Shown here: positions 10,080-47,080 of the stretch, piece by piece
Position numbering within the stretch: position 1 is the stretch's first letter
Layout of the letters: every line of letters begins with the position of its first letter
DNA from: an uncultured Holophagae bacterium
GTDB taxonomy: Bacteria > Acidobacteriota > Thermoanaerobaculia > Thermoanaerobaculales > Sulfomarinibacteraceae
Assembly: GCA_963754985.1 (NCBI GenBank)
Contig: CAVWIJ010000012.1
Location: forward strand, 514,249 to 578,248
Length of the DNA stretch: 64,000 bases
Direction: 5' to 3'
The notes under the pieces: generated by a model
What the model saw: the letters and a program-made list of their open reading frames with translations, nothing else
What the model was told of the DNA's origin: nothing
Databases searched by the model: none
Program-made: the position numbers and the translations under genes

Positions 10080-10235
10080 CGGGCGCGGATCCGGCTTCGC
10101 CGGTGGCACGCCGTGACGAGAGCGGAAGCGGAGACGGCGGCGCGACGCCAGGTCCCTGGAATCCGTAGTCAACAGGGGCGCGGTGTGATTTCCGCCGGGA
10201 TTCCGGACGCGGAAGCGGGCGCGGAAGCGGAAGTG
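10080..10235. repeat. Intergenic hexamer-arm repeat element (locus R1)
   Basis: AGCGGAAGCGGAGACGG at 10121-10137 and GACGCGGAAGCGGGCGCGGAAGCGGAAGTGGG at 10206-10237. It contains the family core CGGGCGCGGAAGCGGAAG at 10216-10233. Confidence 0.6.
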
Positions 10236-10287
10236 GGCCGGGCACCCTGGCCCCTGGGCGAGAGGGGGTGGTACCGTACTGATCGCA

Positions 10288-11496
10288 ATGACTTCGGAAC
10301 TCCGCCGGGGCGCCGTGACCGCGGCCGACGTCCACAAGTGGTACCGCGTGTACGCGTCGCCCACCGAGCGCGTCAAACGGGTGCTCGGGAGGCCGAGCCG
10401 GCATCTCGAGTTCCAGGCGCTCGACGGCGTCTCCTTCGCGGTGGAGCCGGGGACCGCGCTGGGCATCGTCGGCGAGAACGGCGCCGGCAAGAGCACGCTG
10501 CTCAAGCTGATCGCCGGCACCACGCTGCCGACCGCCGGCCGCGTCGAGGTGGGAGGGGTGGTGGCGGCGATCCTCGAGCTCGGCGCCGCCTTCCACTCGG
10601 AGTTCTCGGGGCGCGACAACGCGATCCTCTACGGCGCGCTGCTCGGCCTCGACCGCCAGGAAATGGAGCGACGGCTGCCGTCGATCTTCGACTTCGCGGA
10701 GCTCGGCGAGTTCATCAACCACCCGATCCGGAGCTACTCCACCGGCATGGTGATGCGGCTGGCCTTCGCCGTCGCGACCGGGGTCGACGCCGACGTGCTG
10801 GTGGTGGACGAGGCGCTCGCCGTCGGCGACGGCTACTTCCAGAAGAAGTGCGTCGACCGCATTCGCGAGATCCACGGCCGGGGCACCACCATCCTGTTCT
10901 GCTCGCACTCGATGTACTACGTGACGATGTTCTGCGAGCGCGCGCTGTGGTTGGCGGGCGGCCGACTGCAGCGGATCGGTCCGGCCAAGGAGGTGGTCGA
11001 GGCCTACGAAGAGCACCTGCTTCTTCGCGACAAGCGGAGGCTGGACCGCGGCGCTGCCGCGCCCGCGCAGGCCGCACCGGTCGCCAAGGTCGGTCGGGTG
11101 GCCGCGGTCCGGCTCGCCGGCCGCGACGGCGAGACCCCGCTCGAGCTCGCGCCGGGCGGGATGCTCGATCTCGAGATCGAGGTCGAAAGCTCGCGGCGCG
11201 AGGAGCGCTTCCATGTCGCCGCGGCGCTCGACACCCTGGACGGCCGCTGCGTGCTCGGGGTGTCGACGGCGTGGGACGGCCAGCCGCCGCTCGAAGGGCG
11301 GGATCGCTACCGGATCGCGCTGACCGTCCCCGCGCTGCCGGTGGCCTCCGGCACCTTCCACCTCTCGGTCTTTCTGCTCGACGAGAGCGGCCTGGCCGTG
11401 CACGACCAGATGGTCGCTACCAACGCGGTGCGGGTGACGGCGCCGTCGTGGACGCCGTCGCTGATCGAGGTGGCGCATCACTGGGAGCGGCGGTGA
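10288..11496 (+). CDS. wzt: Polysaccharide/O-antigen ABC exporter ATP-binding protein (Wzt/TagH type) with a C-terminal glycan-binding-like domain
   Basis: Intact 402-aa ORF. Walker A is GENGAGKSTLLK, the signature is YSTGMVMRLAF and Walker B is VLVVDEALAVGD. The family motif AILELGAAFHSEFSGRDN is present, and a roughly 150-aa C-terminal extension resembles Wzt_C. Confidence 0.85.
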   Translation: MTSELRRGAVTAADVHKWYRVYASPTERVKRVLGRPSRHLEFQALDGVSFAVEPGTALGIVGENGAGKSTLLKLIAGTTLPTAGRVEVGGVVAAILELGAAFHSEFSGRDNAILYGALLGLDRQEMERRLPSIFDFAELGEFINHPIRSYSTGMVMRLAFAVATGVDADVLVVDEALAVGDGYFQKKCVDRIREIHGRGTTILFCSHSMYYVTMFCERALWLAGGRLQRIGPAKEVVEAYEEHLLLRDKRRLDRGAAAPAQAAPVAKVGRVAAVRLAGRDGETPLELAPGGMLDLEIEVESSRREERFHVAAALDTLDGRCVLGVSTAWDGQPPLEGRDRYRIALTVPALPVASGTFHLSVFLLDESGLAVHDQMVATNAVRVTAPSWTPSLIEVAHHWERR

Positions 11497-12538
11497 GCAC
11501 GCCGCGGCGGCTCACGGTCAACTACCTCCTCGAGGACACGGCGCTGTTCGGAGGGGTCAAGATCCCGCTCCACCACGCCAACCTGCTGCACCGGCGCGGC
11601 CACCGGGTGCGGGTGCTCAGCCGGGGATGCCGGCCCGACTGGTACCCCCTCGTGGCGCCGTTCGCGACGGTGCCGGACTTCGGCGCCGACTCGGTCGCGA
11701 GAGGCCGACGTCCACGTCGCCACCTTCTGGACCACCATCGCGCCGGCGGCGGCGCTGCCGCATGGCCGGGCCGTGCACTACTGCCAGGGCTTCGAGGCCT
11801 CGTACACGCACAACCTCGATGAGCACCCAGCGATCCTCGAGGCGCTACGCGCGGCCGCTGCCGGCCTTCGCCCTGGCGCCCCACCTTGCCGAGCTCGTGC
11901 GGAGCCGCTTCGGCCGGCCGGCACGGGTGGTGCCGCCGGCCCTCGAGCGGATGTGGCGGCCGCGCTGGCGCTGGCGGCCGGCGAGGCGGCCGCGCGTGGT
12001 CGTGGTCGCACCCCTTCGAGGTCGACTGGAAAGGGGTGCGCGACCGCCCTCGAGGCGGTGCGCCGGCTGCGCGCCGGCGGGGCCACGCTCACGCCTGGTG
12101 CGGGTGTCGCAGTGGCCGCTGTCAGCGACGCCGAGCGCGCGCTCGTCGAGCCGGACGAGTTCCACTGCCGGACCTCGACCCGCCGGCGGTGGCGCGGCTG
12201 ATCGCAGGCTGCGACCTGCTGCTCGCTCCGTCGTGGGAGCAGGAGGGCTTCGGCCTGCCGGTGCTCGAGGCAATGGCCTGCGGGGTGCCGGTGGTGGCGT
12301 CGAGCATCCAGGCTTTCGCGGGCTTCGCCACCGGGGCCGCCGAGCTGGTGCCGGCCGGCGACCCGGACGCCTTCGCAGACGCGGCCGCGAGCGATCCTCG
12401 GCGAGCCGTCGCGGTGGCGGCGAGATGCGGCGCGCCGGGCTCGCAGCTGCGGCGGCCTTCAGCGAGCGCCGGGTCGCGGACACGGTCGAGGAGGCGCTGC
12501 GCTGGGTGGCAAGCGACGCTTGGAGGACCGGCCGATGA
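11493..12538 (+). pseudogene. GT1/GT4-family glycosyltransferase with about 9 frame changes as assembled
   Basis: The GTG at 11493 overlaps the wzt stop (GTGA). Fragments in three frames are LTVNYLLEDTALFGGVKIPLHHANLL, VHYCQGFEASYTHNL, LAPHLAELVRSRFGRPARVVPPA and LLLAPSWEQEGFGLPVLEAMACGVPVVAS (the E-x7-E region of GT4). Confidence 0.6.
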
Positions 12539-13596
12539 CGGTGTCGCTGGTGGTGGTCTGCCACCGCTCCTCCAGCGTGCTGGCCGACTGCATCTCGAGC
12601 TTCCGTCGCGAGGCGCAGGCCGCCTCGGTGGCGGGCGAGGTCGTGGTGGTCGAGCAGTCCGAGGATCCGGCCGAGGTGGAGCGGGTCGCCGGCCTCGGGG
12701 CCGACTCGGCTGGAGCCGCGGCCCAACCGAGGGTACGCGGCCGGGCTCAACGCCGGGATCGCTGCCGCCGGCGGCGAGATCCTGCTGCTGGCCAACCCGG
12801 ACATCGTGCTCCAGGAGGGAAGCCTGCGCCGGCTGCTCGCGGCGATCGCCGAGGGCTACGACGTCGTCGGGCCCCAGCTGGTCTGGGACGACGGAGGCGA
12901 AATCCTGTCTGCCCCCGGCCGAGGACCCGCGATCGGACCGCAGAGCTGTGGCGAACCGTGCGGTCGCGACGCCAGTGGGCCTGGGACGCCGGGCTTCGAC
13001 CGTGTGCTCGAGAGCTGGTGGCGGGTGTGGACCGCGACGCGGCCGGTCGAGGTCGCGTGCGCTGCGCGGTCCGCTGCTCGCGGCGAGCCGGTCGGCGGTG
13101 GAGCGGCTCGGGCCGCTCGACGAGGGCTACTTCCTGTACTACGAGGAGACCGAGTGGCTGCTGCGGGCGCGCCGTCGCGGCGCCCACTTCGCCGTGGCGG
13201 CGGGCGCACGGGTCGTGCACCGGTGCGGGACATCGACCACGGCTCACACCGAAGGCCGGGAGGCGCATCGAGGCGGCGTCGCGGCAGCGCTTCTTCGACC
13301 GCAACTACGGCGCGGCGTCGCGCTGGCTGCTGCGGCGCTGCGCGGCCGGCGAGGCGAGCACCGGGATCGTGGCCGAGCCGGTGGCGGGCCCGCGGGCGGT
13401 CCCCGAGCGCCGTGCGGAGCTGTGGTTGATCTCCACCTTCCGGCACCTGATGCCGGCGGTCGGGGTGGTCGGCCGGCCGACCCTGCCAGGGTCGCTCGAG
13501 CGAGTCATCAGCGGGGGGCCATGGTACGCGGCCGCCGCCGCCAGGGACGGCGGCCGCTGGCGCCTGACCGGGTGCTGGAGCTGGGGGAGGCCGTGA
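12535..13596 (+). pseudogene. GT2-family glycosyltransferase with at least 4 frame changes as assembled
   Basis: The ATG at 12535 overlaps the previous stop (ATGA). Fragments are MTVSLVVVCHRSSSVLADCI, NRGYAAGLNAGIAAAGGEILLLANPDIVL, YDVVGPQLVWDDGGEI and LDEGYFLYYEETEWLLRARRRGAHFAVAAGARVVHR. Confidence 0.6.
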
Positions 13597-14585: not shown

Positions 14586-14598
14586 CGAGGGGGATAGC

Positions 14599-16813: not shown

Positions 16814-16847
16814 GCTTCGGGGTCCTTCGGTCGCGCCGTTGAACCCC

Positions 16848-17136
16848 TGCCCGTCTCCGTATCCGTGCCCGCATCCGCGCCGGGGAGCCTGCCCTGAGCG
16901 AGCGGCGCCCATTCGACTCGGAGCTGGCGGGCTCCTCTCAGGGCAGGCTCGAGCGCCGGAAGTCGAAGGGTCCCCATGGTCGCACGTGGGACTTACCGAT
17001 CGCGAAATGGCTGTTGCTTGACGAGACCCTTCGACTCGCCGCCCTCGCGTGCGGCTCGCTCAGGGTGACAAACGAGGACGGCTCGGAAGCGGGCGCGGAA
17101 GCGGAAGAGGAAGCGGGCGGGAGGGGCCTATGCCCC
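16848..17136. repeat. Composite intergenic repeat (locus R2): minus-type hexamer arm, 14-bp hairpin, 115-bp conserved module, plus-type hexamer arm
   Basis: A perfect 14-bp inverted repeat joins 16885-16898 and 16937-16950. The 115-bp module at 16954-17068 is about 92% identical to 22000-22114. The core CGGGCGCGGAAGCGGAAG sits at 17090-17107, and GGGGCCTATGCCCC at 17123-17136. Confidence 0.7.
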
Positions 17137-18770
17137 CCCCGCTCCTGCGGACCCCGGCCATCGTCCACCCCTCGAGGGAGCCGAGGAAGCGCTCCTCCTC
17201 TTCCTTCCAGCGCCGCCACTCCCAGCCCATCTCCGAGCGCAGGATCGGCCGCAGGGGCCGCAGCAGCGCGACCGCCTGCTCGGGATCCCACATCCCCACC
17301 CGCACCCGGCGCAGCAGCAGGTCCTCGAGGTGGAGGACGGCGCCCCAGCGCAGGTGGGCCCGCACCTCGGCCGGGCAGAGGTCGCTGTCCGGCGCGACCG
17401 GCCGCAGCTCGGCGTGCCGGCGGGCGGCGGCTGCTGCGGTCCAGGCCAGGGCGCCGAGCCGCCGGGCCATGCCACGAGCCACGGTCGTGTCGATCTCGAA
17501 GACTCGCGCCAGCCGCTCGGCGAGGTCGGCCGGCGCGAGGCCTGCGAGCGGCGTGCCCTTGGTGGCGCAGGGAGCGGCGTGGAGGGCCCGCTCCTCGGGC
17601 AGCAGCCGGAGGACGGCGTCCACCGCCTCCTCGGCCGTGCTGCGCCAGGTGGTGAGCTTGCCGCCGGCCACCGAGAGCGCGCCGTCCTCGTCCCAGATGG
17701 CCTCCTCGCGGGTCGCCTCCGAGGGATCGTCGGCGTGGGTGTCGAGGATCGGTCGCAGGCCGGCGAAGGTGCCGCGCACGTCAGCCAGGGTCAGGTGCCG
17801 GTCCGGAAACGCGGCGGCCGCGGCGCGCAGCAGGTAGTCAACCTCGGCCGCCGTTGGTCGCGGGTCGTCCAGCGCGCCGTCGTGGTAGTGGTCGGTGGTG
17901 CCGACGAGCACGCCCTCGGGGTGGGGGATCAGGAACACCGGCCGGCCATCGTCGGGCGCGAGCAGGGTCACGGCGACCTCGATCGGGAGCCGCGAGCGGG
18001 CGATGATGAGGTGGATGCCGCGCGATGGCCGGACCCGGCTGCCGGCGAGGCCGAGCCGGCTGCGGAGGACGTCGGTCCAGGCGCCGGTCGCGTTGACCAC
18101 CACCTTCGCCCGGACCCGGTGGGTGCGGCCGTCGGCGAGGTCGTGCAGCAGCACCCCGGCGATCGGCGCCGGCGGGCGCCCGCTGGGCGGCGGTGACCTC
18201 GCAGCGTGTCAGCAGGTGGGCGCCGTAGTGGTGGGCGGTCGCGGCCACCGCCAGGGTGAGCCGCGCGTCGTCGGCCATCGCGTCACTGTAGGCCAGGCCG
18301 CGGTCGAGCTCGCTGACGTCGAGCCCGGGCGCGAGGGCGGCGAGCTCGTCGGCCTCGAGCTGGGCGTGGCGCTCGGGGCGGCCGGTGAGGCGGTCGTACA
18401 TCCAGAGCCCGAAGTCGATCTGCCAACCGGGCGTGCGGTCCCCGCGGTAGGCCGGGTAGAGGAAGCGGATGGGGTACACCAGATGGGGGCTGAGGCTGAG
18501 CATCCGGTCGCGCTCGCGGCACGCGAGGCGAGTGATCCGGAACTGCATCTGCTTGAGGTAGCGCAGCCCGCCGTGGATCAGCTTGGACGAGCGCGAGGAG
18601 GTGCCGGCCCCGACGTCGTCGCGCTCGACGAGCAGCGTCGACAGGCCGCGCTGCGCAGCGTCGAGGGCGATGCCGCTGCCGGTGATGCCGGCGCCGACTA
18701 CCACCAGGTCGAAGGTGTCGTCGAGGGAGGCGAGCGCCATCTGGCGCCACTGCGGGTGGAACACCGTCAC
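17060..18770 (-). CDS. glpD: FAD-dependent glycerol-3-phosphate dehydrogenase with one frame break and a 3' end running into repeat R2
   Basis: N-terminus DLVVVGAGITGSGIALDAAQRGLSTLLVERDD.GAGTSSRSSKLIHGGLRYL (tail of track ORF 17838..19829) is joined to 17060..18154 at about 18170. The candidate GTG start at 18770 overlaps the upstream stop, and an in-frame ATG lies at 18740. Confidence 0.8.
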
Positions 18771-20396
18771 ACCTCCAGCCGGTCCTCCGGGTCCAAGAGC
18801 ACGTGCGGGTTGAGGGTGCCGTCGGGATCCACCTCGGCGGCAACGCGGGCGAGCATCCGCCGGCCGAGCTCTCCCACCTCGCGCTCGAACCACGGCGCGT
18901 GCCACTGGCCGACGCCGTGGTGGTGGCTGAGCGTGACACCGGCGTCGACCAGGGCCTGGCTCGCGGCCCGCTTGACGGTCGCCCAGCGGGCGATGCTCGC
19001 CTCCGGGTCGCCGGCGCAGCGGAAGAAGAAGGTGAAGTACAGTGAGGCGCCGTCGCGGTAGGGGTGCGAGACGTGGCAGAGCACCGCCACCCGCTCGCCG
19101 TCGCCGGCCAGCGCCCCGCCGATGGCGGCTCCCACCTGCTCCCGCACGGCCGGGACCGCGGACCAGACCGCGGCGGTCTCCAGCGTGTCGGTTGCCCAGC
19201 CGAGGTCGAGCAGGGACTCGCGGAGGTAGGGGTGGCGGTAGCGGTCGCGCAGCCAGTGCCGGCCGGGCCTTGAACCGAGCACGACGCCGCGGTGGGCGCG
19301 GACGGTGGCCCGCCCGCAGAGCACGACATCGCGCACGCAGCCGCGCTCGCCGGAGCTGCCGTAGAGCAGGAGGCAGGCGTCCTCGCCCAGGCCGCGCAGA
19401 GCCAGGTAGCGCCGCACCAGGCCGGCGCCGGCCGACGCGGCGAGCCCGATCGCCATCGCCATCTGGGTCTCGCTGGCGTCGGACAGCCGGAGCAGCGTCA
19501 GCGGCACCCCGCTGACCACCAGCTCGCGCACCACATCGAGCCCCGGCTGGAGGCCGGGCAGCAAGGCGCCCTCGACGATCGTCATCGCGGGCCGGGCGCG
19601 GACCCGCAACGTCGCTTCGGTGATGACGCCGAGCCGGCCCTCGCTGCCGAGCACGAGCTGGCGCAGGTCGGGGCCGGCCGCCGAGGCGGGGCGCTCCGGC
19701 AGCCGCAGCCGCCCGGCCGGGGCGATCAGCTCGAGCCCGGCCACCATGTCCTCGATGCGGCCGTAGCCCAGCGACTCTTGCCCGGCTGAGCGGGTGGCGA
19801 CCCAGCCGCCGACGGTCGAGAGCTCCCACGACTGGGGGAAGTGGCCGAGCGTCAGCCGGTGCTCAGCAAGGGCGGACTCCACGGCAGGTCCGGTCGTGCC
19901 CGGGCCGAAGGTGGCGAGGCCCGAGACCGGGTCGAGCCGCGTCAGACCGGCCATCCGTTCGAGCTCGAGGATGAGCGTCGGCGACGAGTCGGCGACCACG
20001 TTGACGCCGCCGGTGACCGAGGTCCCGCCGCCCCAGGGGATCACTCGCACCCCGGCCCGCCGGCACTCGTCGAGGACGGCGGCGACTTCGCCGGCGTTCG
20101 CCGGGCGGCAGACGCCGTCCGGAAGGGCCGGGATGAGGCCGGTGCGCAGGCGGATGACGTCGACCAGGCCCTGGCCGCGGCAGTGGGCGAGCCGGTCGCG
20201 GGGATCGACGCTGAGCTCGCAGGGCAGCTGCGGCAGTGGGCGGGCCGGCAGAGACGGCGGCTGACCCGGGCCCACGGCGAGCGGCGGTCCAGGCGGCCCG
20301 ACCCGCCGCTCGAGCCACGCGAGGAGCTGCGGCGACGGCGGGTAGACCTCACCCTCGAACCCCCACCCGCCGAGGCGTCGCGTTCGTTGTCTGCAT
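18767..20396 (-). CDS. FAD-linked oxidase of the alkyl-DHAP synthase (AGPS)-like family with one N-terminal frame break
   Basis: Track ORF 18767..20275 shows VIPWGGGTSVTGG, GHFPQSWELSTVGGWVATRSAGQ and GVTLSHHHGVGQ. Upstream in the same frame, RRLGGWGFEGEVYPPSP lacks any start codon. The ATG at 20396 (MQTTNATPRR) is one frame off, implying an indel in the G-run near 20365. Confidence 0.75.
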
Positions 20397-20398
20397 CA

Positions 20399-20688
20399 GA
20401 GGCGAGAGTATATCTCCGCTTCCCCTTCCGCTTCCGCGCCCGCATCCGCTTCCGAGTCCGCTTCCGGATTGGGGGCAGGGGGGGAGTCCCTCGCGGGGTG
20501 CCGCCGCAGCACCGCCCGCGGGGTGGAGTCTGAACCGCCACCGAGCCTTTCCCGATCGATCGCGACGCAGTGGTGAAGGTCAAATCGGGCGCGGAAGCGG
20601 GCGCGGAAGCGGAAGGGGGCACGGGCACGGAGACGGGCACGGGCACTGAAGCGGAAGCGGAAGCGGATCAGGCCGAGCGGTCTGACGA
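20399..20688. repeat. Composite intergenic repeat (locus R3) with a perfect 22-bp inverted hexamer-arm pair
   Basis: CCCCTTCCGCTTCCGCGCCCGC (20422-20443) is the exact reverse complement of 20597-20618, with a 153-nt spacer. Further GGCACG/GCGGAA hexamers run to about 20665. Confidence 0.75.
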
Positions 20689-21874
<1,186 letters not shown>

Positions 21875-21943
21875 TGTTTCCTAGCGCTGCCCGGACTGCA
21901 AGCAGACTCGACCGACGTGACCGACGACGTTCGATGGACCTTT

Positions 21944-22210
21944 CTCCCGTGCCCGATTCCGCGCCCGGGGAGCCTGCCCTGAGCGAGCGGCGCGATCAGC
22001 GCCGGGAGTCGAAGGGTCCCCATGGTCGCACGTGGGACTTACCGATCGCGAAATGGCTGTTGCTTGAGGAGATCCTTCGACTCGCTGTCCTCGCGGACAG
22101 CTCGCTCAGGATGACTCGTGGGGGGAGCGGGGAAGGAAGGTGGACTCGGGCCCGGAAGCGGAAGCGGAAGCGGGAGGGGGCCTTATCACCTCTCACCTAT
22201 CGCCTATCAC
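21944..22210. repeat. Composite intergenic repeat (locus R4), the second copy of the 115-bp module, plus a heptamer tract
   Basis: The module lies at 22000-22114. Hexamers CCCGGAAGCGGAAGCGGAAGCGGG lie at 22150-22173. Four 7-nt units CCTTATC/ACCTCTC/ACCTATC/GCCTATC lie at 22181-22208. Confidence 0.7.
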
Positions 22211-22222
22211 TACAATGTCTCC

Positions 22223-25054: not shown

Positions 25055-25086
25055 CCACGAAGAGAGTCTGGTGTCCGTGGGCGAGG

Positions 25087-25207
25087 ACCCCCGCCCGCTT
25101 CCGCGCCCCCTTCCGCATCCGGATGACTATTGACGGTCGGGACACGACCGCCCGGATTCGGGCTCGGGCGCGGACTCGGGCGCGGAAGGGGAAGCGGAAG
25201 CGGGTGA
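25087..25207. repeat. Hexamer-arm repeat (locus R5), an imperfect long hairpin
   Basis: CCGCCCGCTTCCGCGCCCCCTTCCGCATCCGG faces CCGGATTCGGGCTCGGGCGCGGACTCGGGCGCGGAAGGGGAAGCGGAAGCGGG across a spacer of about 30 nt. Confidence 0.6.
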
Positions 25208-25302
25208 AGGCACTGAGCCCCCGTCCTGCCAACTGAGCGAACCCGAAACGGCGGACTCTCGTTACTCCACGTGGAAGGATCGATTCCCGGTCCCCGAAAG
25301 GG

Positions 25303-25486
25303 CTAGCCCGGGAATCTCACCGGGTTTCGTCGCGAGGGTGGCGAGGTGCCGTGCGCAGTGGGGATTTCGTCCCGAGGGGCGCGGAGGCGTACTTGACAGT
25401 ACGTCGAGCACCGCGAGGCGAGAAAGCACCGCTGAGCGCGGTACATCGTCGGCCGCAGTAGAAAGTTGGTGAGATATCCGGGCTAG
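25303..25486. mobile_element. MITE-like 180-bp element, copy 1, with 19-bp terminal inverted repeats (17/19 match)
   Basis: CTAGCCCGGGAATCTCACC at 25303-25321 faces GGTGAGATATCCGGGCTAG at 25468-25486. The interior is about 92% identical to 32944-33123. There is no ORF of its own. Confidence 0.6.
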
Positions 25487-25510
25487 AATCGGTCCAGTCC
25501 GGGAGGCTAG

Positions 25511-26479: not shown

Positions 26480-26489
26480 GGACGTGCCG

Positions 26490-26905: not shown

Positions 26906-26909
26906 TCGC

Positions 26910-31060: not shown

Positions 31061-31077
31061 TCTTCTGGCCGCGTGAG

Positions 31078-31857: not shown

Positions 31858-31973
31858 GGCCGTGCCCGCGGAATGCGGCCGGCCTCCGACGGGTTGGCAA
31901 GGCCGATGCGAGAGCTGCGCCTTGCCGCCGCCGTTGCAACGACAGAGCTCGCTGCGGTCGGTACACTGTCCCC

Positions 31974-32943: not shown

Positions 32944-33123
32944 AGCCCGGATATCTCACCGGGATTCGTAGCGAGGGCGGCGAGGTGCCGTGCGCAGTGG
33001 GGATTTCGACCCGAGGGGCGCGGAGGCGTACTTTATGGTACGTCGAGCACCCCGAGGCGAGAAAGCACCGCTGAGTGCGGTACATCGCCGGCCGCAGTAG
33101 AAAGTTGGTGAGATATCCGGGCG
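32944..33123. mobile_element. MITE-like 180-bp element, copy 2, with perfect 16-bp terminal inverted repeats
   Basis: GCCCGGATATCTCACC at 32945-32960 faces GGTGAGATATCCGGGC at 33107-33122. The element abuts the elbB stop codon (33124-33126). Confidence 0.6.
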
Positions 33124-33938: not shown

Positions 33939-34691
33939 ATGGCGAGGACACCTCACGGGAGCTTGGGCAGCAGCGTGGCGGTGCGACCGGCGGAGTTCCA
34001 GATGCGCTTTCGCGAGCTTCTGGAACGGGCAGCGGCTGCGCGCAAGCCGTTGTTGGAACGACCCGCCCAGCTCGGGCCCTTCCTGACCGTTTCCCGCGAG
34101 GTCGGATCCGGCGGCGCCGAGGTGGCGCGGCTGGTCGGCCTGCGGCTCGGCTGGGCGGTATTCGACAAGGAGCTGGTCGAGGATCTCGCCCGCCGGCTCG
34201 AGCTGTCGCCCCAGATGGTCGAGCTGCTGGACGAGACTCGCTCCGACTGGTTCCACGAGACCATGCTCAGCCTCATGAACTCGAGGATCGTGCTCCAGAA
34301 CAACTACCTGTCGATGCTCGGCAAGGTCATGCACCTCGCGGCCTACGAGGGGAAGGTGATCTTCGTTGGCCGCGGCGGCCACCTGCTGCTCCCCCGTGAC
34401 GCCGGGCTGAGGGTGCGGGTGATCGCCCGGCGCGAGACCCGGCTGGAGACCTACCAGGCGCGGGAGGGGCTGAAGGCCGACGAGGCGGAGCGCGAGCTCG
34501 ACCGGCTCGAGGCTGGCCGCGCCGACTTCGTGCGCCGCCACTTCCGCCGCGAGCCGGACGACCCCTACCAGTACGACATGGTGCTCGACTCGTCGATGTT
34601 CGGGATGGAGGGCTGCGCCGAGCTGGTGTGTCGGGCGCTGGAGCTTCGCGGCTTGATTGCCAAGAAGGAGGGATTAGGGGCTCGGGACTAG
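33939..34691 (+). CDS. Cytidylate-kinase-like (AAA/P-loop kinase) family protein
   Basis: The ATG at 33939 is preceded by GAGGAGGG. FLTVSREVGSGGAEVARLVGLRLGW is the P-loop-like start of the Cytidylate_kin2 family. The last 8 codons and the stop lie inside repeat R8. Confidence 0.65.
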   Translation: MARTPHGSLGSSVAVRPAEFQMRFRELLERAAAARKPLLERPAQLGPFLTVSREVGSGGAEVARLVGLRLGWAVFDKELVEDLARRLELSPQMVELLDETRSDWFHETMLSLMNSRIVLQNNYLSMLGKVMHLAAYEGKVIFVGRGGHLLLPRDAGLRVRVIARRETRLETYQAREGLKADEAERELDRLEAGRADFVRRHFRREPDDPYQYDMVLDSSMFGMEGCAELVCRALELRGLIAKKEGLGARD

Positions 34692-34868
34692 GGGAAAGGC
34701 CGCCACCCGTCCCCGTTCTCGTCCCCGTTCCCGTTCCCGTTCCCGGGTCCGCACGCTGCTCCGCTTCTGCGCGCCGCTTCCGCGCCCGCATCGCGAGTCC
34801 GCGTCCCCCGCAGCGGCGAGCCCAACCGTCCGGGCTCGGAAGCGGACGGGGAAGCGGAAGCGGGTGGA
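34665..34868. repeat. Composite intergenic repeat (locus R8): 7-nt-phased G4 tract plus hexamer arms
   Basis: GGGATTAGGGGCTCGGGACTAGGGG lies at 34670-34694 with G-runs starting every 7 nt. (CCGTYC)n runs over 34708-34745, CGCTTCCGCGCCCGC lies near 34775, and CGGAAGCGGACGGGGAAGCGGAAGCGGG lies at 34837-34864. Confidence 0.65.
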
Positions 34869-34926
34869 TGTGCGTGACCGAGACGCAACAGGCTGTGGCT
34901 TCGGTGTCCTTCTCCGGCCTCTCCCC

Positions 34927-36743: not shown

Positions 36744-36752
36744 GAGGGTGTC

Positions 36753-37723: not shown

Positions 37724-39743
37724 TTATGCCGCCGGCTCCTCCGCTGGCGTCTTGCGGCGACGGCGGCGCCGAGACCGCCGCTTCTTGGCCGGCTCCTGCC
37801 CGTTCGTCACCTCGGCAGGAGCTGTCGGGAGGTCTTGGCCGGACGCGCCCGGCGGCTCGGCTGGCGCCTCGCCGGCGGCGGCGCCTTTCTTGTGTCGGCG
37901 GCCCCCGCGGCGGCGCCGCTTCGCCTTCTCGGGCTCGCCGGCCGGCGGCCCGCCGCCAGCCTCGGCGCCGGGCTCGTGCTCCGGTTCGCCCATTGCATCG
38001 GCCGGCGGCGCGGCCAGGTCGTTGCCGCTGGCCGGCTCGGCCGGCAGCTCGCCGGGTCCGCCGCCCTTCTTGCGGCGGCGCCCCCCACGCCGGCGTCGCT
38101 TGGCCTTCTCAGGCTCGCCGCCGCCGTGCGTGACGGCGTCGTCGGCCTCGTCGTCGTCCAACTCGGGCTCGTTCTCCCCGGGGCGCCCGTCTGCCCGCTC
38201 CTCTCCCGCCGCCAGGTCCGCGACGGTCACCGCCGGCGCCGCGGCGACCGGAGCCTCGTGCTCGCGGTCACGGTCGAACCACTCGAGCTTCTCCTGCGAT
38301 CGGTGGAGGGCGGTCGCCGCGACGACCTCGATCCGGATGTCGAACTCCCGCTCGAGCTCCGCGATCTGCTGCCGGTGGTCGTTCTGCAGCGCGTCGGCGA
38401 GCTCGGGGTGGAGCTCGACGCGGACCCGCTTGAGCCGGCCGGTCACCGCGCGGGTCTCGATTCGGCGCAGCACGCTCAGGCTGACGAGCTCGGGGCTCGC
38501 GATGCTGCCGGTGCCGGCGCAGGTCGGGCACTGGCGGTGGGTGCGCAGCTTGAGCTCCTTGGTGATGCGCTGGCGGTTGATCTCGAGCAGCCCGTTCGAC
38601 GAGATCCGGCCGACCGAGAACTTCGCCCGGTCGTCCTTCATGGCCTCGCGCAGCCCGCGCTCGACGTCCTTGCGGTGCTTCATGGAGCGCATGTCGATGA
38701 AGTCCACGACCACCAGCCCGCCGATGTCGCGAAGCCTCAGCTGCCGGGCGACCTCGGTCGCGGCCTCGAGGTTGGTCGCGACCGCGGTGTCCTCCTGGCT
38801 CGAGGCGCCCCGGGACCGCCCGGAGTTGACGTCGATCGCGGTCAGCGCCTCGGTGCCGTCGATGACGATCGAGCCGCCGGACGGAAGCTCGACCCGGCGC
38901 TGGTAGATGCGGTCGATCTGGGGCTCGAGGTCGAAGCGGCTGAACAAGGGCATCCGCTCGGAGTAGCGGGTGAGCCGGGTCTTGGCGCGCGGCATGAAGG
39001 TCTGCATGTAGGCGCCAACCTTCTCGAATGTGTCGTCGTCGTCGACCAGGACCTCGTCGATGCTCGAGTCGAGGGAGTCGCGCAGCACCTGCAGGATGAG
39101 GTCCTGGTCCGAGTAGAGCAGCCGTGTCCCCTTGCCGGTCGCGGACTGGGCGTAGCACCTTCTTCCACAGCCGGAGCAGGGCGCTGAGGTCGCGGTTCAG
39201 CGAGGCCTTGGGCTGGTCGCCGGCATTGGTGCGGGCGATCACCCCGAAGCCCTCGGGAAGGTCGAGCTGGCCGATCCGCTCGCGCAACACGCCACGAGTC
39301 TCGCCGTCCTCGAGCTTGCGTGAGACGCCGCGCGCCTCCTCGAAGGGCATCAGTACCAGGTAGCGCCCGGCAATGCTGAGGTTGGTGGTGAGCAGCGCGC
39401 CCTTGGAGCCGATGCCGTCGCGGACCACCTGGACCAGCACCGGCTTGCCCTTCTCGAGGAGCTGGTCGATGCGGTGGTGGCGGCGCTCGGAATCGAGCTT
39501 GCGGTGGGCGGCGGCCGGGACCACGTCCTCGGCGCGCAGCAGGCCGTGGCGCTCGGCGCCGAAGTCGAGGAAGGCGGCGTCGAGGCTCGGCTGCAGGCTG
39601 GCCACGACTCCGCGGTAGATGTTGCCCCTGTAGAGGCCGGTTTCCGACGTCGACACCGCATAGGCGTCGAGGACGCCGCGGTTGACGATCGCCACCCGCA
39701 CCTCTTCCGGTCGGTGGGCGTTGATCAGCAGTTTGCGTGCCAT
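37724..39743 (-). CDS. Rne/Rng-family ribonuclease with an Arg-rich C-terminal tail and one frame break
   Basis: The N-terminal S1 domain lies in 38268..39743 (NIYRGVVASLQPSLDAAFLDFG). The catalytic part lies in 37724..39088 (GGSIVIDGTEALTAIDVNSG, GGLVVVDFIDM, CPTCAGTG). They join at about 39130. Confidence 0.8.
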
Positions 39744-39753
39744 GTGCTCTCCG

Positions 39754-40816
39754 TCAGCAGCGGTACAGCACGGCGCCCCAGTTGAGCCCGCTGCCGAGAC
39801 CCACGAAGCAGACCAGGTCGCCCGCCTTGAGCCGCCCCTGCTGGCGGGCCTCGTGGAAGGCGATCGGAATCGTGGCTGCGGTGGTGTTGCCGTAGCGCTG
39901 AATGTTGTTGAAGACCTTGTCGTCGGGGAGCCCGAGCCGCTTCTGGACCCCCTCGTTGATGCGCAGATTCGCCTGGTGCATGATCAGCAGGTCGAGGTCG
40001 TCGAGGCTCAGTCCGTTGCGCTTCAGGATCTCGAGGGTCACCTCGGGCATCGCGGTGACAGCGAGCGCGTAGACCTTGCGCCCCTCGACGATCGGCGTGA
40101 TGTCGCCGCTTTCGATCATCTCCTGGCTGATGTAAGGCCGGAAGGCGCTGCCAGCCGCCTTGGTCCACAGCCGCTCGGCCTCGTTGCCGTTGCAGTGGAT
40201 GACGCAGTCGAGGACGCCGCAGTCCGTGCCCTCGACGCCCTCTACCACCACCGCGCCGGCGCCGTCGCCGAACAGCACGGTGCGGTCGCGGAACAGGGTG
40301 TTCCGGTCGTACTGCTCCTTGCTGACCGGCCCGTCGGCGTCGCCCATCGCCACGTCCCAGCTCTGGCGGTCCCACGGCTGGAGGCAGCTGTGGACCTCGG
40401 CGCCCACCACCAGCACCCGCCGGTGCTGCCCGGAGCGGATGACGGCATCGGCGAGCTGCAGGTGCGTAGAGAAAGCCAGCGCACTGCTGGCGGATGTCGA
40501 GGCAGGGAATCGTGGCGAGGCCGAGCTTTCGCTGCAGGAAGGGGGACGAGCCCGGGAAGTAATAGTCCGGGGTCATGGTGGCCAGGATCAGGTAGTCGAT
40601 GTCGTCGAGGGTGCGGCCGGCGCTTTCGACCGCCTGGCGGGCGGCGGGCACCGCGATGTCCGAGGTCGCCTCGCCGCGCGCCGCGAAGCGCCGCTCGACG
40701 ATGCCGGTCCGCACCTGGATCCACTCGTCGGTGGTGTCCATGATGCGGGACAGGTCGTTATTGTCGACGATCTTGGGGGGCACGTGCATACCGGTACCGG
40801 TGATCACTGCACGCAT
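39754..40816 (-). CDS. fabH: 3-oxoacyl-ACP synthase III with one frame break
   Basis: The ATG at 40816 is preceded by AAAGGAGGGG. The sequence MRAVITGTGMHVPPKIVDNNDL...TDEWIQVRTGI...QQCAGFLY (track ORF 39725..40837) joins 39754..40416 (HQANLRI, NIQRYGNTTAATIPIA, GLGSGLNWGA) at about 40440. Confidence 0.85.
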
Positions 40817-40889
40817 GTCCCCTCCTTTCGCACGCACTATAGCTCACGAGGATCGACGAATGGCGGCGGTTGCACACGGAATCGGCTAG

Positions 40890-41192
40890 CGGCTTCCGGC
40901 GGTGGGATGCGACCCCGACCCGCTTCCGCGCCCCCGTCCGCGCCCGATTCCGGGATTGAAGCGGAACGATGAGTGGCAACGACGCGTTCGGCCGCGGAAG
41001 CGGATCCGGCATCGCCTTCTCGCTTCGCCGTGACAACAGCGGGCTGGGGACGGATCACTCGTTCGATCGACGGAACGATCCGGTATCACCTCGTCGGAAG
41101 CGGGCGGGAGGACGGATCACCGACCACGTATCACTTCCCCCGGAAGCGGGCTCGGAAGCGGGCTCGGAAGCGGGCTCGGAAGCGGAAGGAGG
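40890..41192. repeat. Composite intergenic repeat (locus R9)
   Basis: CCCGCTTCCGCGCCCCCGTCCGCGCCCGATTCCGGG runs from about 40918 to 40953. A threefold 12-mer tandem (CGGAAGCGGGCT)x3 followed by CGGAAGCGGAAGG lies at 41141-41189. Confidence 0.65.
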
Positions 41193-41219
41193 GCGCCGAC
41201 TCCGTGATATCGTCTCGAC

Positions 41220-42513: not shown

Positions 42514-42514
42514 G

Positions 42515-42775
42515 AGCGTGTTGGGCATGGGCCCCTCGGCGTACTCGGGTCGTAGGCCTTGGGGTGTGCTTGAGGCGTCTCGGTCGCTGGCTGGCCTACG
42601 CCCCGCGCGCGCCGAGAACGATGCGCTGCGCGCATCCAGGAGGAGATGGTGCCGCAGTGGCCGTCTGACGACACTTCGGTCAACCACGCCCGCCAAGAAA
42701 GGCCGATGCGGTACGAACTCTGAGTGCGGCACATCGCCGGCCGCAGTAGAAAGTTGGTGAGGTATCCGAGATGGT
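42515..42775. repeat. Divergent relative of the 180-bp element, inserted between ccmB and ccmC
   Basis: 42719-42770 (CTGAGTGCGGCACATCGCCGGCCGCAGTAGAAAGTTGGTGAGGTATCCGAG) matches the right end of copies 1 and 2. The upstream 200 nt is only patchily similar, and no clear left terminal repeat is present. Confidence 0.45.
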
Positions 42776-42838
42776 GTGCCCGCGGGCACCGCGAACGCCG
42801 GTTGGGAGGGACGGGATTGCCGATGGGGGATGACGTGT

Positions 42839-42950
42839 TAGGGTCTAGGGGCTAGGCTTTAGAAGCCAGAACCGGGGCGGTAGCGTTTGGTGCGATTCCC
42901 GCCCCCGCTTCGTCGGAAGCGGGCGCGGAAGCGGAAGCGGGCACGGGGGT
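42839..42950. repeat. Heptamer tract plus hexamer-arm repeat (locus R10)
   Basis: TAGGGTC/TAGGGGC/TAGGCTT/TAGAAGC/CAGAACC lie at 42839-42873. The core CGGGCGCGGAAGCGGAAG lies at 42920-42937, preceded by the small hairpin CCCGCTTC-GTCG-GAAGCGGG. Confidence 0.6.
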
Positions 42951-43020
42951 GAGGACGGCGAGGCCCCGATTCGCCGTCACTGACTGCCCGGTGGAGGTTT
43001 GCCGGCAATGGAGACGCCTG

Positions 43021-44206: not shown

Positions 44207-44278
44207 GCTCGCACCTGGCCCGGATCGGCGGGCCGCTGTAAAATGAGCCTGTGTCTCGAATTCTAGGGAGGAGCTGTC

Positions 44279-46826
44279 ATGTACATACCCGGCACTCTGT
44301 TGCTGTGGCTGGCCTTCCTGCTGGGCGTGGCCTCCACGGTCGCCTACGCCCTGGTGATCCGCGGCTCGAGCGGCGCCCGCGCCATCGCCCGCCAGGCCTA
44401 CCTGCTGATGACGGCGGCGATCGTGGTGGTGTCGGGCCTGCTGATGTACCTGCTCGTGACCCATGACTACCGCCTGCACTACGTCTGGGCCTACTCCGAC
44501 AACCTGCTCGAGCTCAAGTACCTGGTCTCCTCGTTCTGGGGTGGTCAGGAGGGGAGCTTCCTGCTCTGGATTTTCTGGGGCGTGCTGCTGGGGCTGCCGC
44601 TGATGCGCTTCGCCCGCGCTTACGAGTCGCGGGTGATGGTGTTCTACAACCTCACCCTGCTGTCGCTGATCATGCTCCTGCTCAAGCAGGACCCCTTCCG
44701 CTTTCACGAAGGTCTCGCCACGGGGATGACGCCGCTCGACGGCCAGGGGCTCAACCCGCTGCTGCAGAACCCGTGGATGGTCATCCACCCGCCGATCATG
44801 TTCATCGGCTACGCGTCGCTCGCGATTCCGTTTTCGTTCGCGCTGGCGGCGCTGTGGATGCGCCGCTACGACGAGTGGACCAAGGCCTCGATGCCGTGGG
44901 TCCTGCTCTCGCTCGGCACCCTCGGCCTCGCGATCATGCTCGGCGGCTACTGGGCGTACGAGACCCTCGGCTGGGGCGGCTACTGGGGGTGGGACCCGGT
45001 GGAGAACGCCTCCCTGGTGCCGTGGCTGGCCACCGCCGCCCTGACCCACGGCATGCTCCTGCAGCGCGGCCGCAAGCGCTTCCGCCGGATGAACCTGACC
45101 CTGGCGCTGTTCGCCTACCTGCTGGTCGTCTACGCCACCTTCCTGACCCGGTCGGGCGTGCTCGGAGACTTCTCGGTGCACTCCTTCGTCGACCTCGGCA
45201 TCACCGGCTGGCTGATCTTCAACATGGTGTTCTTCATCGCCGTGTCGGTGGTCCTGCTGGCCTTGCGCTGGCGTGACATCCCGACCGAGGTCGGCACCGA
45301 GCCCTTCCTGTCGCGGACCATCTTCTTCGTGCTCGGCATCCTGATGCTGGTCCTGACCGGGGTGATCGTGGGCGTCGGCACGTCGGCGCCGCTGATCTCC
45401 CGCCTGTGGGGCGAGCCGGCGCAGGTCGGGCCCGACTTCTACAACAACGTCGGCTACTGGCTGGCGGTGGCCTTCGCCGCCTTCCTCGGCGCGACGCCCT
45501 TCCTCGGCTGGAGCCGCACCGACGACGGCGCCGGCCGCCGCTTCGCGGTCGTGCTCGCGCTGAGCGTCGTGCTGCTGGTCGTCGGCCACTTCCTGGGCCT
45601 CACCGGCTTCAAGGCGCACCTCTACGTCGCCGCCGTGCTCTTCAACATCGTGGCCAACTCCTGGGCCTTGCTGCAGAAGGTCGCGGCACCGGCATTGGCG
45701 GGCCGCCGGCGGCGTGCTCGCCCACGTCGGGGTCGGGCTTATGATGCTCGCATTCCTGACCACCGGCTGGCTCGACCGCGAGCAGAAGGTGCGCCTGATC
45801 CAGGGCCAGGCGACCGAGGTGCTCGGCTACTCCCTGACCTTCACGGGCGTCGAGAAACCGACGCCGATGGCGCGCGACGCGATGGTCGTGGAGGTGACCG
45901 ACCCGCGGGGCCGCAACTTCGTGCTCAAGCCGCGGATGTGGGTCAACCAGAAGTCGGACCAGCTCGTCGCGAACCCGGACATCCGGTCCTTCCTGACCAC
46001 CGATCTCTACGTGGCGCCGGTCGAGTTCACCCCGGGTGAGGAGGCGCCGGCGAGCGGCCGGCTGATGCTGGCCAAGGACCAGCCGGCGGCCTTCCAGGAC
46101 TGGACGCTGCTGTTCCGCCGCTTCGACATGGCGCGCCAGAACGCGGTCCCCGGGGCCCTCACCGTCGGGATGGTGGTCGAGCTCCAGCGGCCGGGCGTCG
46201 AGCCGGTCATCCTCGAGCCCTCGCTGATCTCGATGAGCGACGGCACCGTTCAGTCCGTGCCCGTGGACATCCCGGGGGTGCCCGGCGGCAAGCTGCGGGC
46301 GACCGGAATGAGCGTCGACCAGGGGACGATCCGGGTCGAGCTGCTCGGCCTCGGCGGCGGCGTCGCCCGCACCGCGGTCCTCCACAAAGGTGAGGTCCTC
46401 ACCTACGAGGGGCTCAAGATCCGATTCGACGACTTCGACCTCTCCGACTTCGACCCCGACGCCGGGAAGATCAACTTCGGGGTCGTCTTCGAGGTCGAGC
46501 GGGACGGCCAGACCGTCGAGGTGGTGCCGCGCTTCAAGGGCGGCATGGCGGGCGGGCCCGAGCTGACGCCGGCGGTGGTGCCCGGCGCCGGCGGAGTGAC
46601 CCTCGCCATCGGCCGTGTCGACGCCGAGGGCGGCGCCGTCGAGCTGCAGGTGATCGACCCGACCCTGTCGTCGACAGGGTCCCAGCCGGCGAGCGTGGTG
46701 CTCGACATCTCGACCAAGCCGCTCATCGCACTGGTGTGGATCGGGACGCTGATGGTGATGGCGGGCATCGGCACGGCCATCGGCCTGCGGCGCAGGGACA
46801 TCGCCTCGATCCCTGTCGAGGGCTGA
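44279..46826 (+). CDS. ccmF: Cytochrome c heme lyase subunit CcmF with an extended C-terminal periplasmic domain and one frame break
   Basis: Track ORF 44279.. shows FWGGQEGSFLLW and the WGGYWGWDPVEN WWD motif. It joins 45714..46826 at about 45700. The reconstructed length is about 849 aa. Confidence 0.8.
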
Positions 46827-46837
46827 TCGGACGCAGA

Positions 46838-47080
46838 GGACGGGGGCGGGGGGAACGCTGCCCCCGCCCGCTTCCGCGCCCGCGCCCGCTTCCGGATGGG
46901 GTGGGTGGGGTTCGCCACCCTGCCGCCGCCTTCCGCGCCCGCTTCCGCATTGGGCGACTAAGGGCGCATGCCCTGAAGCCCCATCCTCGAGTTCGCATTC
47001 CAGCCACCGGAGAGCGTGCCTCCAGCCCCGCCGTCTCGGGCTCCCGGAATGCCCGGAAGCGGAAGCGGAAGGTGAAGCGA
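46838..47080. repeat. Composite intergenic repeat (locus R11)
   Basis: The GC hairpin GGGCGGGGG/CCCCCGCCC lies at about 46843-46869. CCCGCTTCCGCGCCCGCGCCCGCTTCCGG and CCTTCCGCGCCCGCTTCCGC are minus-type arms. CCCGGAAGCGGAAGCGGAAGG at about 47051-47071 is the plus-type arm. The palindrome AGGGCGCATGCCCT lies at about 46961. Confidence 0.65.

Follow-up and report, generated by a model that had tools for sequence, protein, structure and literature searches.

The window analyzed here is a 64,000-nucleotide stretch of contig CAVWIJ010000012.1 from an uncultured Holophagae bacterium, with a G+C content of approximately 70%. Its gene spacers contain arrays of a G-rich hexamer, most often as two inverted arms that enclose a loop. 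These hexamer arrays are a real non-coding repeat family that is specific to a Holophagae lineage. The gene map of the window combines a codon model, a frame plot, Pfam domains, and synteny with the called genes of relatives. It places arrays in convergent spacers (16843-17059, 26480-26909, 30800-31077, 34692-34926, and 46827-47121), tandem spacers (20396-20688, 25055-25510, and 42514-43020), and divergent spacers (9947-10287, 21875-22222, and 40788-41219).

On the G-rich strand, the repeat unit is CGGRNN, in which positions 1 to 3 are an invariant CGG, position 4 is a purine, and positions 5 and 6 are free. The most frequent units are CGGAAG, CGGGAA, CGGGCG, CGGGCA, and CGGAGA. They form three main unit types: CGGAAG/CGGGCG (GCGGAA/GCGGGC), CGGGAA (GGGAAC), and CGGGCA/CGGAGA (GGGCAC/GGAGAC). 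One arm may combine blocks of several types, as at 20586-20669. The units within an array are contiguous, without spacers, and the arms are direct arrays that lack an internal dyad. By number of units, the window holds 8 arrays of three, 4 of four, 7 of five, 2 of six, 2 of seven, and 1 of eight, with no preference for four units.

The exact 18-mer CGGGCGCGGAAGCGGAAG has seven copies in the window, at 10216, 17090, 20425 (reverse strand), 20598, 30815 (reverse strand), 31020, and 42920, against 0.00 expected from shuffled sequences. A preliminary description of this DNA had listed the same seven copies, two of them displaced by 1-2 nucleotides (20600 for 20598 and 31019 for 31020). It had also listed twelve array loci, all of which contain arrays, and at every one Tandem Repeats Finder detects 6-, 12-, and 18-nt periods. 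The generalized pattern CGGRNNCGGRNNCGGRNNCGG, which is (CGGRNN)x3 followed by CGG, matches 37 times against 0.08 expected; all 37 strict matches are intergenic and lie within 10.2-46.9 kb. Counted over the window and the syntenic contigs L099 and L101 of two relatives, 44 of 45 strict arrays are outside genes, and CGGGCGCGGAAGCGGAAGGGGAAGCGG-like higher-order patterns are found again across loci and genomes. The arrays proper sum to about 0.9 kb. By the coordinates of the preliminary description, arms plus loops cover about 2.7 kb; spacers between 9 and 49 kb sum to roughly 5.2 kb, of which this is about half, and both values are below the 3-3.5 kb and the greater part of the non-coding DNA that it had estimated.

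An independent Logan assembly is 100% identical to the window over 25459-26730, and independent JGI, ENA, and NCBI assemblies of relatives contain arrays in the same spacers. The identical arrays in the former and the orthologous arrays in the latter rule out an assembly or sequencing artifact. A coding low-complexity repeat is likewise ruled out, as the arrays lie outside conserved protein ends and array-free orthologues are equal in protein length. None of the six frames of the arrays contains a stop codon, so open reading frames (ORFs) continue through the arrays and gene callers extend genes into them, which accounts for over-long N- and C-termini in public annotations. In L104, another relative, the public call at 10001-13093 has 1030 residues while its orthologues have 942, and window positions 17060-17119 are also crossed by an ORF.

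In the following inventory, G-rich arms carry the unit on the forward strand and C-rich arms carry it on the reverse strand. The divergent spacer at 9947-10287 contains short G-rich arrays (CGGGCG, CGGATC, CGGCTT ... CGGAAG, CGGAGA, CGGCGG) at 10080-10140, within a CGGGCGCGGATCCGGC..CGCCGTGAC..AGCGG module. A G-rich arm of five units (CGGACG, CGGAAG, CGGGCG, CGGAAG, and CGGAAG) follows at 10204-10233, without a C-rich partner and 54 nt upstream of an ABC-ATPase start. In the next array-bearing spacer, which is convergent, a C-rich arm of five GGGCAC/GGAGAC-type units (16848-16877) begins 5 nt past the stop of the upstream forward-strand gene, and the G-rich arm holds six GCGGAA/GCGGGC-type units (17084-17119) that are crossed by the ORF of a minus-strand DAO-family gene. 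Between the minus-strand FAD-oxidase and aminotransferase genes, a nine-unit C-rich arm (20413-20466) adjoins a conserved TATACT box, which lies a short way upstream of the FAD-oxidase start. Its partner is a G-rich arm of 14 units (20586-20669), built of GCGGAA/GCGGGC, GGGCAC/GGAGAC, and GCGGAA blocks, that lies 19 nt from the aminotransferase stop. The divergent spacer between the aminotransferase (reverse) and FAD/Fe-S oxidase (forward) genes has a four-unit C-rich arm (21944-21967) and a five-unit G-rich arm (22147-22176), followed by TATCACC heptamers (22184-22210), a TACAAT box (22211-22216), and a GTG start 6 nt further on. Beyond the FAD/Fe-S oxidase, a five-unit C-rich arm (25092-25121) begins 37 nt past the stop codon, is conserved in the related contigs L099/L100, and pairs over a 31-nt loop with a nine-unit G-rich arm (25153-25206) that has five units in L104.

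The convergent DUF7544/Metallophos spacer contains G-rich arrays only (26500-26517, 26566-26583, 26653-26670, 26734-26745, 26790-26807, and 26857-26868), with units resembling repetitive extragenic palindromes (REPs) interleaved. At 30809-30885, two C-rich arms follow one another, eight units of GCGGAA/GCGGGC type (30809-30856) that begin 9 nt past a forward-strand stop and four of GGGAAC type (30862-30885). Their G-rich counterpart of seven units (31008-31049) ends 28 nt from the stop of the minus-strand TauE gene. Past the cytidylate kinase stop, C-rich arms of eight GGGAAC-type units (34704-34751) and three GCGGAA-type units (34771-34788) are followed by a six-unit G-rich arm (34831-34866) in the convergent spacer shared with a minus-strand DUF525 gene. 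The divergent spacer upstream of ccmA has a six-unit C-rich arm (40917-40952) and an eight-unit G-rich arm (41141-41188) that consists of (CGGAAGCGGGCT) x3.8 and then CGGAAG, 31 nt upstream of the ccmA start. The 507-nt ccmB-ccmC spacer holds a short C-rich arm (42896-42907) and a six-unit G-rich arm (42914-42949). Past the stop of the ccmF region, C-rich arms of five (46865-46894) and three units (46930-46947) are followed by a G-rich arm of three to four units (47054-47079), about 45 nt from the stop of a minus-strand MFS gene. An isolated GGGAAC-type array of three to four units, G-rich only, is located at 61453-61475.

The order of the arms is close to invariant. Every two-armed locus of the window has its C-rich arm first and its G-rich arm second, as originally described, and 19 of 19 two-armed clusters in the window and its relatives run C-rich arm, loop, G-rich arm. 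Inverted pairs had been called the usual arrangement; this is true of the two-armed loci, while three loci (10080-10233, 26500-26868, and 61453-61475) have G-rich arrays only. A metagenome scan with the 24-mer CGGAAGCGGGCGCGGAAGCGGAAG matched at least 120 contigs (loci L105-L224), which together with metagenome-assembled genomes (MAGs) of Holophagae extends the enrichment beyond the window. Among the metagenome contigs listed, to which all metagenome figures below refer, there are 167 non-redundant clusters, and the two-armed or more complex ones comprise 64 of CG order and one each of CGCG, GCG, and GC, so that the C-rich arm precedes the G-rich arm in 64-66 of 67. Single arms in this set follow the same geometry: C-only arms are nearer to the left gene (23:10) and G-only arms nearer to the right gene (19:4). 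They adjoin gene 3' and 5' ends about equally (30:26).

Arms are placed at the outer edges of a spacer, beside the flanking genes, and C-rich arms begin 5-38 nt past stop codons. In the window, L099, and L101, arrays are present in 11 of 15 convergent, 7 of 9 tandem, and 5 of 16 divergent spacers, so that 18 of the 24 spacers with a gene 3' end bear arrays. The corresponding shares in the metagenome loci are 68%, 61%, and 45%. Array boundaries show just a weak T ahead of the first unit and a G-run behind the last, with no clear end motif. The inverted repeat of the metagenome elements does not extend past the arrays, and unit types show no trend along an array from its inner end outward that might signal polar growth. 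Between paired arms, the loops measure 13-254 nt (median 102), and most have unrelated sequences; the 64 metagenome loops form similarity clusters of 11, 2, and 2, and the others are singletons. The window loops had been described as differing from locus to locus, which is correct for most of them, but those at 16880-17075 and 21968-22115 have a REP-like doublet in common. The arms themselves agree with their partners in unit type and vocabulary and not in unit order, so the phrase 'conserved inverted arms' in the preliminary description was too strong. Partners of GCGGAA/GCGGGC-type arms are of the same type in 54% of cases, compared with 30% for the other arrays of the same loci (p = 2e-9).

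Relatives with syntenic contigs were located through FAD/Fe-S oxidase homologues, which are identical to the window protein at 88% in L099/L100, about 80% in L104, 78% in L101, 75% in L102, and 69% in L103. A protein 80% identical to the window oxidase has a 90%-cluster mate that is named 'Holophagae bacterium'. Comparison of orthologous spacers shows that the window, L099/L100, L101, and in part L104 have arrays in the same spacers and the same layout, with conserved flanks and differing content. Arrays are nearly absent from L102 and L103, which have 4.4 and 1.3 units per 10 kb versus 17-37 in array-rich genomes. The same spacers of L103 hold other arrays of 7-8-nt units, including an inverted GAAGGTGA/TCACCTTC pair. 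Unit usage is also genome-specific: the ratio of GCGGAA/GCGGGC to GGGAAC-like to GGGCAC/GGAGAC units is 60:15:10 in the window, 9:18:6 in L099, and 4:57:2 in L101.

Individual spacers illustrate how the elements change. The FAD-oxidase/aminotransferase spacer has GCGGAA/GCGGGC arms in the window, GGGAAC arms around a homologous 45-nt loop in L100 and L101, and no arms in L104; both arms thus differ in type jointly. In the aminotransferase/FAD/Fe-S spacer, the GGGAAC arms of L099 and L101 enclose a loop of about 45-60 nt, while the window has other arms and an inserted REP-like doublet of about 150 nt in the loop. The C-rich arm of the FAD/Fe-S/DUF7544 spacer is nearly identical in the window and L099, and its G-rich arm varies in unit number, as given above for L104. 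The elements are inherited at fixed spacers and their content turns over quickly, through gain or loss of units, switches of unit type, and insertion of other small repeats into the loop. Hypervariability between strains is ruled out by identical arrays in two strains of 99.2% identity. Slippage and recombination or conversion between arrays are a more likely means of spread and homogenization than a cut-and-paste transposase.

Among species-representative genomes, the 18-mer gives single hits in many high-GC taxa, which are probably coding, and multiple hits in two Holophagae MAGs. These two MAGs hold all three unit types, and several further non-coding modules are common to the window and Holophagae MAGs. 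FeB_10 (PQAJ01) and MFD00032.bin.2.196 (CAVQXZ01) are MAGs counted among the array-rich genomes. Viral contigs gave six isolated 18-mer hits, none of which is an array, so this search provides no sign of phage carriage. Literature searches brought up no description of a repeat family of Holophagae or Acidobacteria.

Minimum-free-energy structures have the arms paired in all tested elements (z = -3.4, -4.5, -1.7, -4.8, and -2.3). A separate pair of heptamer arrays with GAAGAAC units (62259-62290 and 62343-62374), located directly past the stop of an ABC-ATPase gene, has its purine-rich arm first and also folds (z = -4.2). Since this pair folds back and L103 carries the GAAGGTGA/TCACCTTC pair, fold-back appears to be the feature common to the inverted short-repeat families of the lineage, and a stem-loop is therefore taken as the likeliest functional form of the hexamer arms. 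The tentative interpretation, given somewhat less than an even chance, is that the two arms form a fold-back stem-loop that marks transcription-unit boundaries in both directions. A polymerase leaving either flanking gene would transcribe a C-rich arm first and a complementary G-rich arm second, and the two would zip in the transcript into a long GC-rich stem-loop. Since all arms share one vocabulary, any C-rich arm could pair over about 18 bp with any G-rich arm. Termination, pausing, insulation, or protection of 3' ends might be the task of such a stem-loop. Hairpin-plus-T terminators are no more frequent than chance predicts, with none at gene ends in 9-49 kb and none at the elements, which rules out an intrinsic terminator (a GC-rich hairpin with a short loop and a U-tract behind it) as the identity of the elements. 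In a region without such canonical signals, the stem-loop could have a role like that of REPs and bacterial interspersed mosaic elements (BIMEs) in enterobacteria, which mark and protect transcript ends.

Several observations weigh against this boundary role. No U-tract follows the stems, which are instead succeeded by G-runs or C-rich tracts, and a co-transcriptional terminator hairpin would be expected to have a shorter loop than the 254 nt reached here. Over 64 elements, the complementarity of a C-rich arm to its own G-rich arm is 17.6 compared with 17.0 for the G-rich arms of other elements (p = 0.14), and the true partner has a median rank of 27 of 64. A compensatory signal for pairing at individual loci is therefore lacking. 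A first pooled test had suggested locus-specific covariation between arms (p = 0.007), but it was confounded by genome-level unit preference; stratified within genomes, the test is negative (p = 0.2), as is the 64-element comparison. The shared vocabulary means that its absence does not refute a stem-loop, yet it also removes the usual proof of one. The total lengths of the C-rich and G-rich arms of an element are negatively correlated in the 64 metagenome elements (Spearman -0.33, p = 0.007), which may be a selection artifact of the 24-mer search. In addition, divergent spacers also hold elements, at the frequencies given above, one element lies within the ccm operon (42514-43020) where no terminator is expected, and the arms at 20413-20466 and 41141-41188 abut or overlap promoter -35 positions. 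Finally, a plain hairpin model does not on its own predict the strict C-then-G order. That order could arise either from descent, as inverted ends look alike both ways, or from a requirement for the C-rich arm first, as in the Rho-based alternative discussed below.

A serious rival, unlikely on balance but of real weight, regards the elements as selfish or neutral fold-back repeats or self-renewing microsatellite-like arrays that are tolerated in spacers and homogenized by slippage and recombination or conversion. The C-then-G order would then come from a founder, and it would persist because an element with inverted ends looks alike in both insertion orientations. This explanation accommodates the unconstrained and mostly unrelated loops, the absence of locus-specific covariation, the replacement or loss of entire elements at orthologous sites, and the occupation of every spacer type with only a mild bias. 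Genome-specific usage of unit types resembles subfamily expansion or concerted evolution, the recurrence of CGGGCGCGGAAGCGGAAGGGGAAGCGG across loci and genomes implies copying, and the lineage has other inverted short-repeat families with the reverse purine/pyrimidine order. However, the elements have no target-site duplication, defined ends, or shared interior, no transposase domain was seen among the roughly 40 window ORFs scanned, and the identity of the arrays in closely related strains indicates that they are not hypermutable. The spacer-edge position and CGG period also persist across relatives whose loops have diverged beyond alignment. A doubtful further option is a lineage-specific system of unrecognized kind: either a fold-back mobile element or array-writing and -converting activity, or a trans-acting reader of CGG at a 6-nt period. 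The writing activity may install and homogenize matched inverted arrays at gene boundaries, and the reader may use them as bidirectional boundary marks. The C-then-G order, matching of type without matching of unit order, genome-specific vocabulary, and turnover at fixed sites are compatible with such an active process and unexplained by simple slippage.

More doubtful still is the possibility that each arm acts alone as an RNA loading or boundary site, in which C-rich, G-poor, periodic RNA recruits Rho or another RNA-binding factor and the G-rich arm serves the opposite direction. Among the functional models, only this one predicts both the strict C-then-G order and the geometry of single arms, and it is consistent with arms that are independent in unit order. 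The published criteria for Rho utilization (rut) sites are a C/G ratio above 1, a C residue every 11-13 nt, a length of 70-80 nt, and a downstream GC-rich hairpin pause (RhoTermPredict, PMC6407284). Similarly, the C-rich arms are G-poor and have C residues every 12 nt through the 6-nt period, C/G ratios of 2.1-3.2 in 78-nt windows, positions just past stops, and a GC-rich hairpin downstream, in a region that lacks canonical intrinsic terminators. Yet the arrays reach 18-54 nt instead of 70-80, every unit retains a G (CCG) for which a rut site has no need, and the complementary arm would sequester the site. C/G ratios of at least 2 are found in 64 runs elsewhere in the window, many of them coding. 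As a general signal, C-over-G skew past stop codons is weak in every relative, whether or not it has arrays. Independent sites would not require arms to match in unit type, arms are about as frequent at 5' as at 3' ends, and the other inverted families of the lineage put the purine-rich arm first. G-quadruplexes on the G-rich strand and i-motifs on the C-rich strand, as non-B structures that regulate transcription, are an improbable explanation. Arrays of the GGGAAC and GGGCAC types form canonical G3N3 motifs, L099 and L101 together have 17 qualifying arrays among 22, and arrays adjoin promoters and stop codons as in PMC4692102. In the window, on the other hand, four G3 runs are present in 1 of 24 arrays (mean G4Hunter score 0.82), and the dominant GCGGAA/GCGGGC type permits two-tetrad structures only, which rules out the quadruplex as a unifying feature for that type. 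Orthologous sites carry G3 units in some genomes and G2 units in others, a quadruplex gives no reason for the invariant C of CGG, there is no four-unit preference of the Xanthomonas kind, and the complementary arm would compete with a quadruplex. The least probable of these proposals treats the arrays as tandem double-stranded DNA sites for a lineage-specific protein (nucleoid-associated, boundary, or polymerizing regulator) whose specificity co-evolves with unit type. The fixed CGG-purine core with, as counted in that proposal, three free positions, the genome-specific vocabulary, and the several arms directly upstream of or over -35 positions would fit such a protein. Against it, no candidate protein has been identified, three unit types stand side by side in one genome, a 6-bp period fails to hold successive sites on one face of B-DNA, and half of the arms are at gene 3' ends.

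Eukaryotic fold-back (FB)-type transposons have long inverted arms of short tandem repeats, with variable length and a variable center. They share with the hexamer elements inverted arms of tandem repeats around a variable or unrelated center. The Holophagae arms differ in being shorter (18-84 nt), bacterial, and inherited in place, with no target-site duplication and no associated transposase. A simple set of MITEs (transposable elements that are miniature and bounded by inverted repeats), which the preliminary description had doubted, is ruled out by the lack of target-site duplication, loops of 13-254 nt, and the lack of a shared interior: in 62 elements, direct repeats at the flanks average 4.73 against a null of 4.72, although fuzzy array boundaries might hide very short duplications. 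Its statement that the window has no transposase or recombinase agrees with the absence of such domains in about 40 ORFs compared with Pfam, a scan that is non-exhaustive. A CRISPR array, which would have repeats of 20-50 nt, unique spacers of similar length between them, a leader, and cas genes, is ruled out by the contiguous 6-nt units, again as proposed earlier, and the ORFs scanned contain no cas domains. The covariance models of Rfam 15 give two chance-level hits, neither at the arrays, which rules out a known RNA family; a tRNA is rejected as well.

A REP unit is an imperfect palindrome of 20-40 nt, and RAYT is the REP-associated tyrosine transposase. Classical REP is ruled out because the arms are direct hexamer arrays and not palindromic units. 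No RAYT gene was found among the roughly 40 window ORFs scanned against Pfam. The earlier separation from REP/BIME is thus right for the arms but not for the spacers: arrays interleave with REP-like units (26729-26868), the CGGGCGCGGATCCGGC..CGCCGTGAC module, and a MITE, which results in an extragenic BIME-like mosaic. Like the REP, BIME, and REPIN (REP doublet forming a hairpin) elements of proteobacteria, the hexamer elements are extragenic, high-copy, inverted doublets that could form transcript hairpins, build mosaics, and are candidate mRNA 3'-end stabilizers or terminators. Unlike them, each arm is a tandem hexamer array, and loop length and sequence are not conserved. REP, BIME, and REPIN elements are named in the introduction of PMC4692102.

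The preliminary description had seen no resemblance to known repeats, but the heterogeneous G-rich heptamer arrays of Xanthomonas (GGGAATC/GGGANTN) and Nostoc (GGGGA(C/T)T) are alike in kind (Rehm et al. 2015, PMC4692102) and are the closest described analogue. Those arrays are dispersed, about 90% intergenic, near start or stop codons, and often in inverted pairs able to form stem-loops. They occupy the same gene gaps in related species while their length and sequence vary, are not associated with insertion sequences (IS), and have an unexplained function, for which quadruplex-type regulation of transcription has been proposed (PMC4692102). The Holophagae arrays resemble them as short G-rich tandem units that keep a G core and vary at other positions, dispersed in intergenic DNA, in inverted pairs, at sites that are kept across relatives while length and sequence vary, and without a link to IS or transposases. 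They differ in a unit of 6 instead of 7 nt, an invariant CGG-purine core, the coexistence of three unit types, the lack of a four-unit preference, and a commonest type with just GG runs. Holophagae pairs are also C-rich first with G strands outward, whereas Xanthomonas pairs are described as convergent, apparently the opposite, and divergent spacers are mildly depleted in the Holophagae family. PMC4692102 also cites heptanucleotide tandem repeats from Calothrix PCC7601 and further cyanobacteria. They are likewise short-period, lineage-specific, and dispersed in non-coding DNA, but they are heptamers of other sequence and are not defined by an inverted-pair layout.

The elements fill about half of the spacer DNA in a gene-dense region of 70% G+C, which is where promoters and transcript ends must be, and Holophagae are a class with almost no molecular genetics. 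Should the elements prove to be marks of transcript ends, they would reveal the way in which transcription is punctuated in a high-GC lineage that lacks canonical terminators, and Xanthomonas/Nostoc-type repeats, unexplained since they were described, would gain a function. If selfish, the elements would be the equivalent in bacteria of fold-back elements, and a factor that installs or reads the arrays, if real, would raise interest in them greatly. On a practical level, the arrays can seed misassembly, and lineages could be recognized by their genome-specific unit vocabulary.

Promoter-like sequences in the window include -10-like boxes that lie about 6-10 nt upstream of start codons and are kept in L099-L104, such as TACAAT at 22211-22216 (GTG at 22223), TATACT at 20407-20412 on the reverse strand, and TACACT at about 31960-31965. 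Their positions suggest that many mRNAs in this lineage are leaderless or nearly so. DUF7544 differs in having a TAGAAT box plus a leader with a GGAGG ribosome-binding site.

Other small repeats accompany the hexamer arrays. The REP-like unit is about 45 nt long (CCTTCGACTCG, a short hairpin, and GCTCGCTCAGGGCAGGC) and occurs at 16880-17075, 21968-22115, 26729-26868, in locus L079, and at 8754-8836 of L104. It forms inverted doublets in hexamer-arm loops, is apparently nested at 16880-16975, and is part of a 66-nt tandem repeat with arrays at 26729-26868. The module CGGGCGCGGATCCGGC(T/A)..CGCCGTGAC(R)NGAGCGG is found at 10080-10125, 26566-26620, and 40989-41050, in loci L011, L038, L078, and L079, and at about 9900-9960 of L101; it is always beside G-rich arrays and is common to other Holophagae MAGs. 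A palindromic module of about 175 nt (GCCACCTTTGGCGATTTCGGG ... CCCGAAATCGCCAAAGATGGCACGCCCGCAGGAC) lies in either orientation within loops between hexamer arms, at 13950-14100 of L101, 18330-18480 and 10060-10200 of L104, in L058 and L078, and in 11 of the 64 metagenome loops. Behind a G-rich arm there is often a GGGG and, next to it, G-poor sequence that repeats every 7-8 nt, as at 22184-22210 (TATCACC), 26875-26890 (CTAACCC), 26628-26650 (TCACTGCC), 5836-5880 of L099, and in L001 and L046. The period of these G-poor units is not a multiple of 3, and some produce stops in all three frames of the opposite strand.

A true MITE family, whose members measure about 178 nt and end in perfect 16-nt inverted repeats (GCCCGGATATCTCACC / GGTGAGATATCCGGGC), has full copies at 32945-33122 and 25307-25492 and a partial copy at about 42700-42775. 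The two full copies are closely similar by eye in a three-way alignment. The copy at 25307-25492 lies inside a CTAGAAT -10-like box upstream of DUF7544, appears to duplicate TA, and is absent from L099, L101, L102, and L103.

Many genes of the window are split between frames: DAO (17060-18720), the FAD/Fe-S oxidase (22860-23070), RNase G (37724-39700), FabH (39754-40787), CcmF (44279-46826), and MFS (47122-48589). These genes have partial Pfam domains only, and BLAST covers 68-69% of the query against full-length orthologues. They are probably the result of long-read assembly indel errors and not real pseudogenes. The cytidylate kinase gene (window 33963-34691; L099 12937-13665) is alone inverted in L103 (21300-22022), where its neighbors keep their order and orientation; no hexamer arms that could have mediated the inversion were found flanking it in L103. 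The ccmA and ccmB genes are separated from ccmC, ccmE, and ccmF by the 507-nt spacer at 42514-43020. With its MITE fragment and hexamer-arm pair, this spacer unusually interrupts an operon that is compact as a rule.

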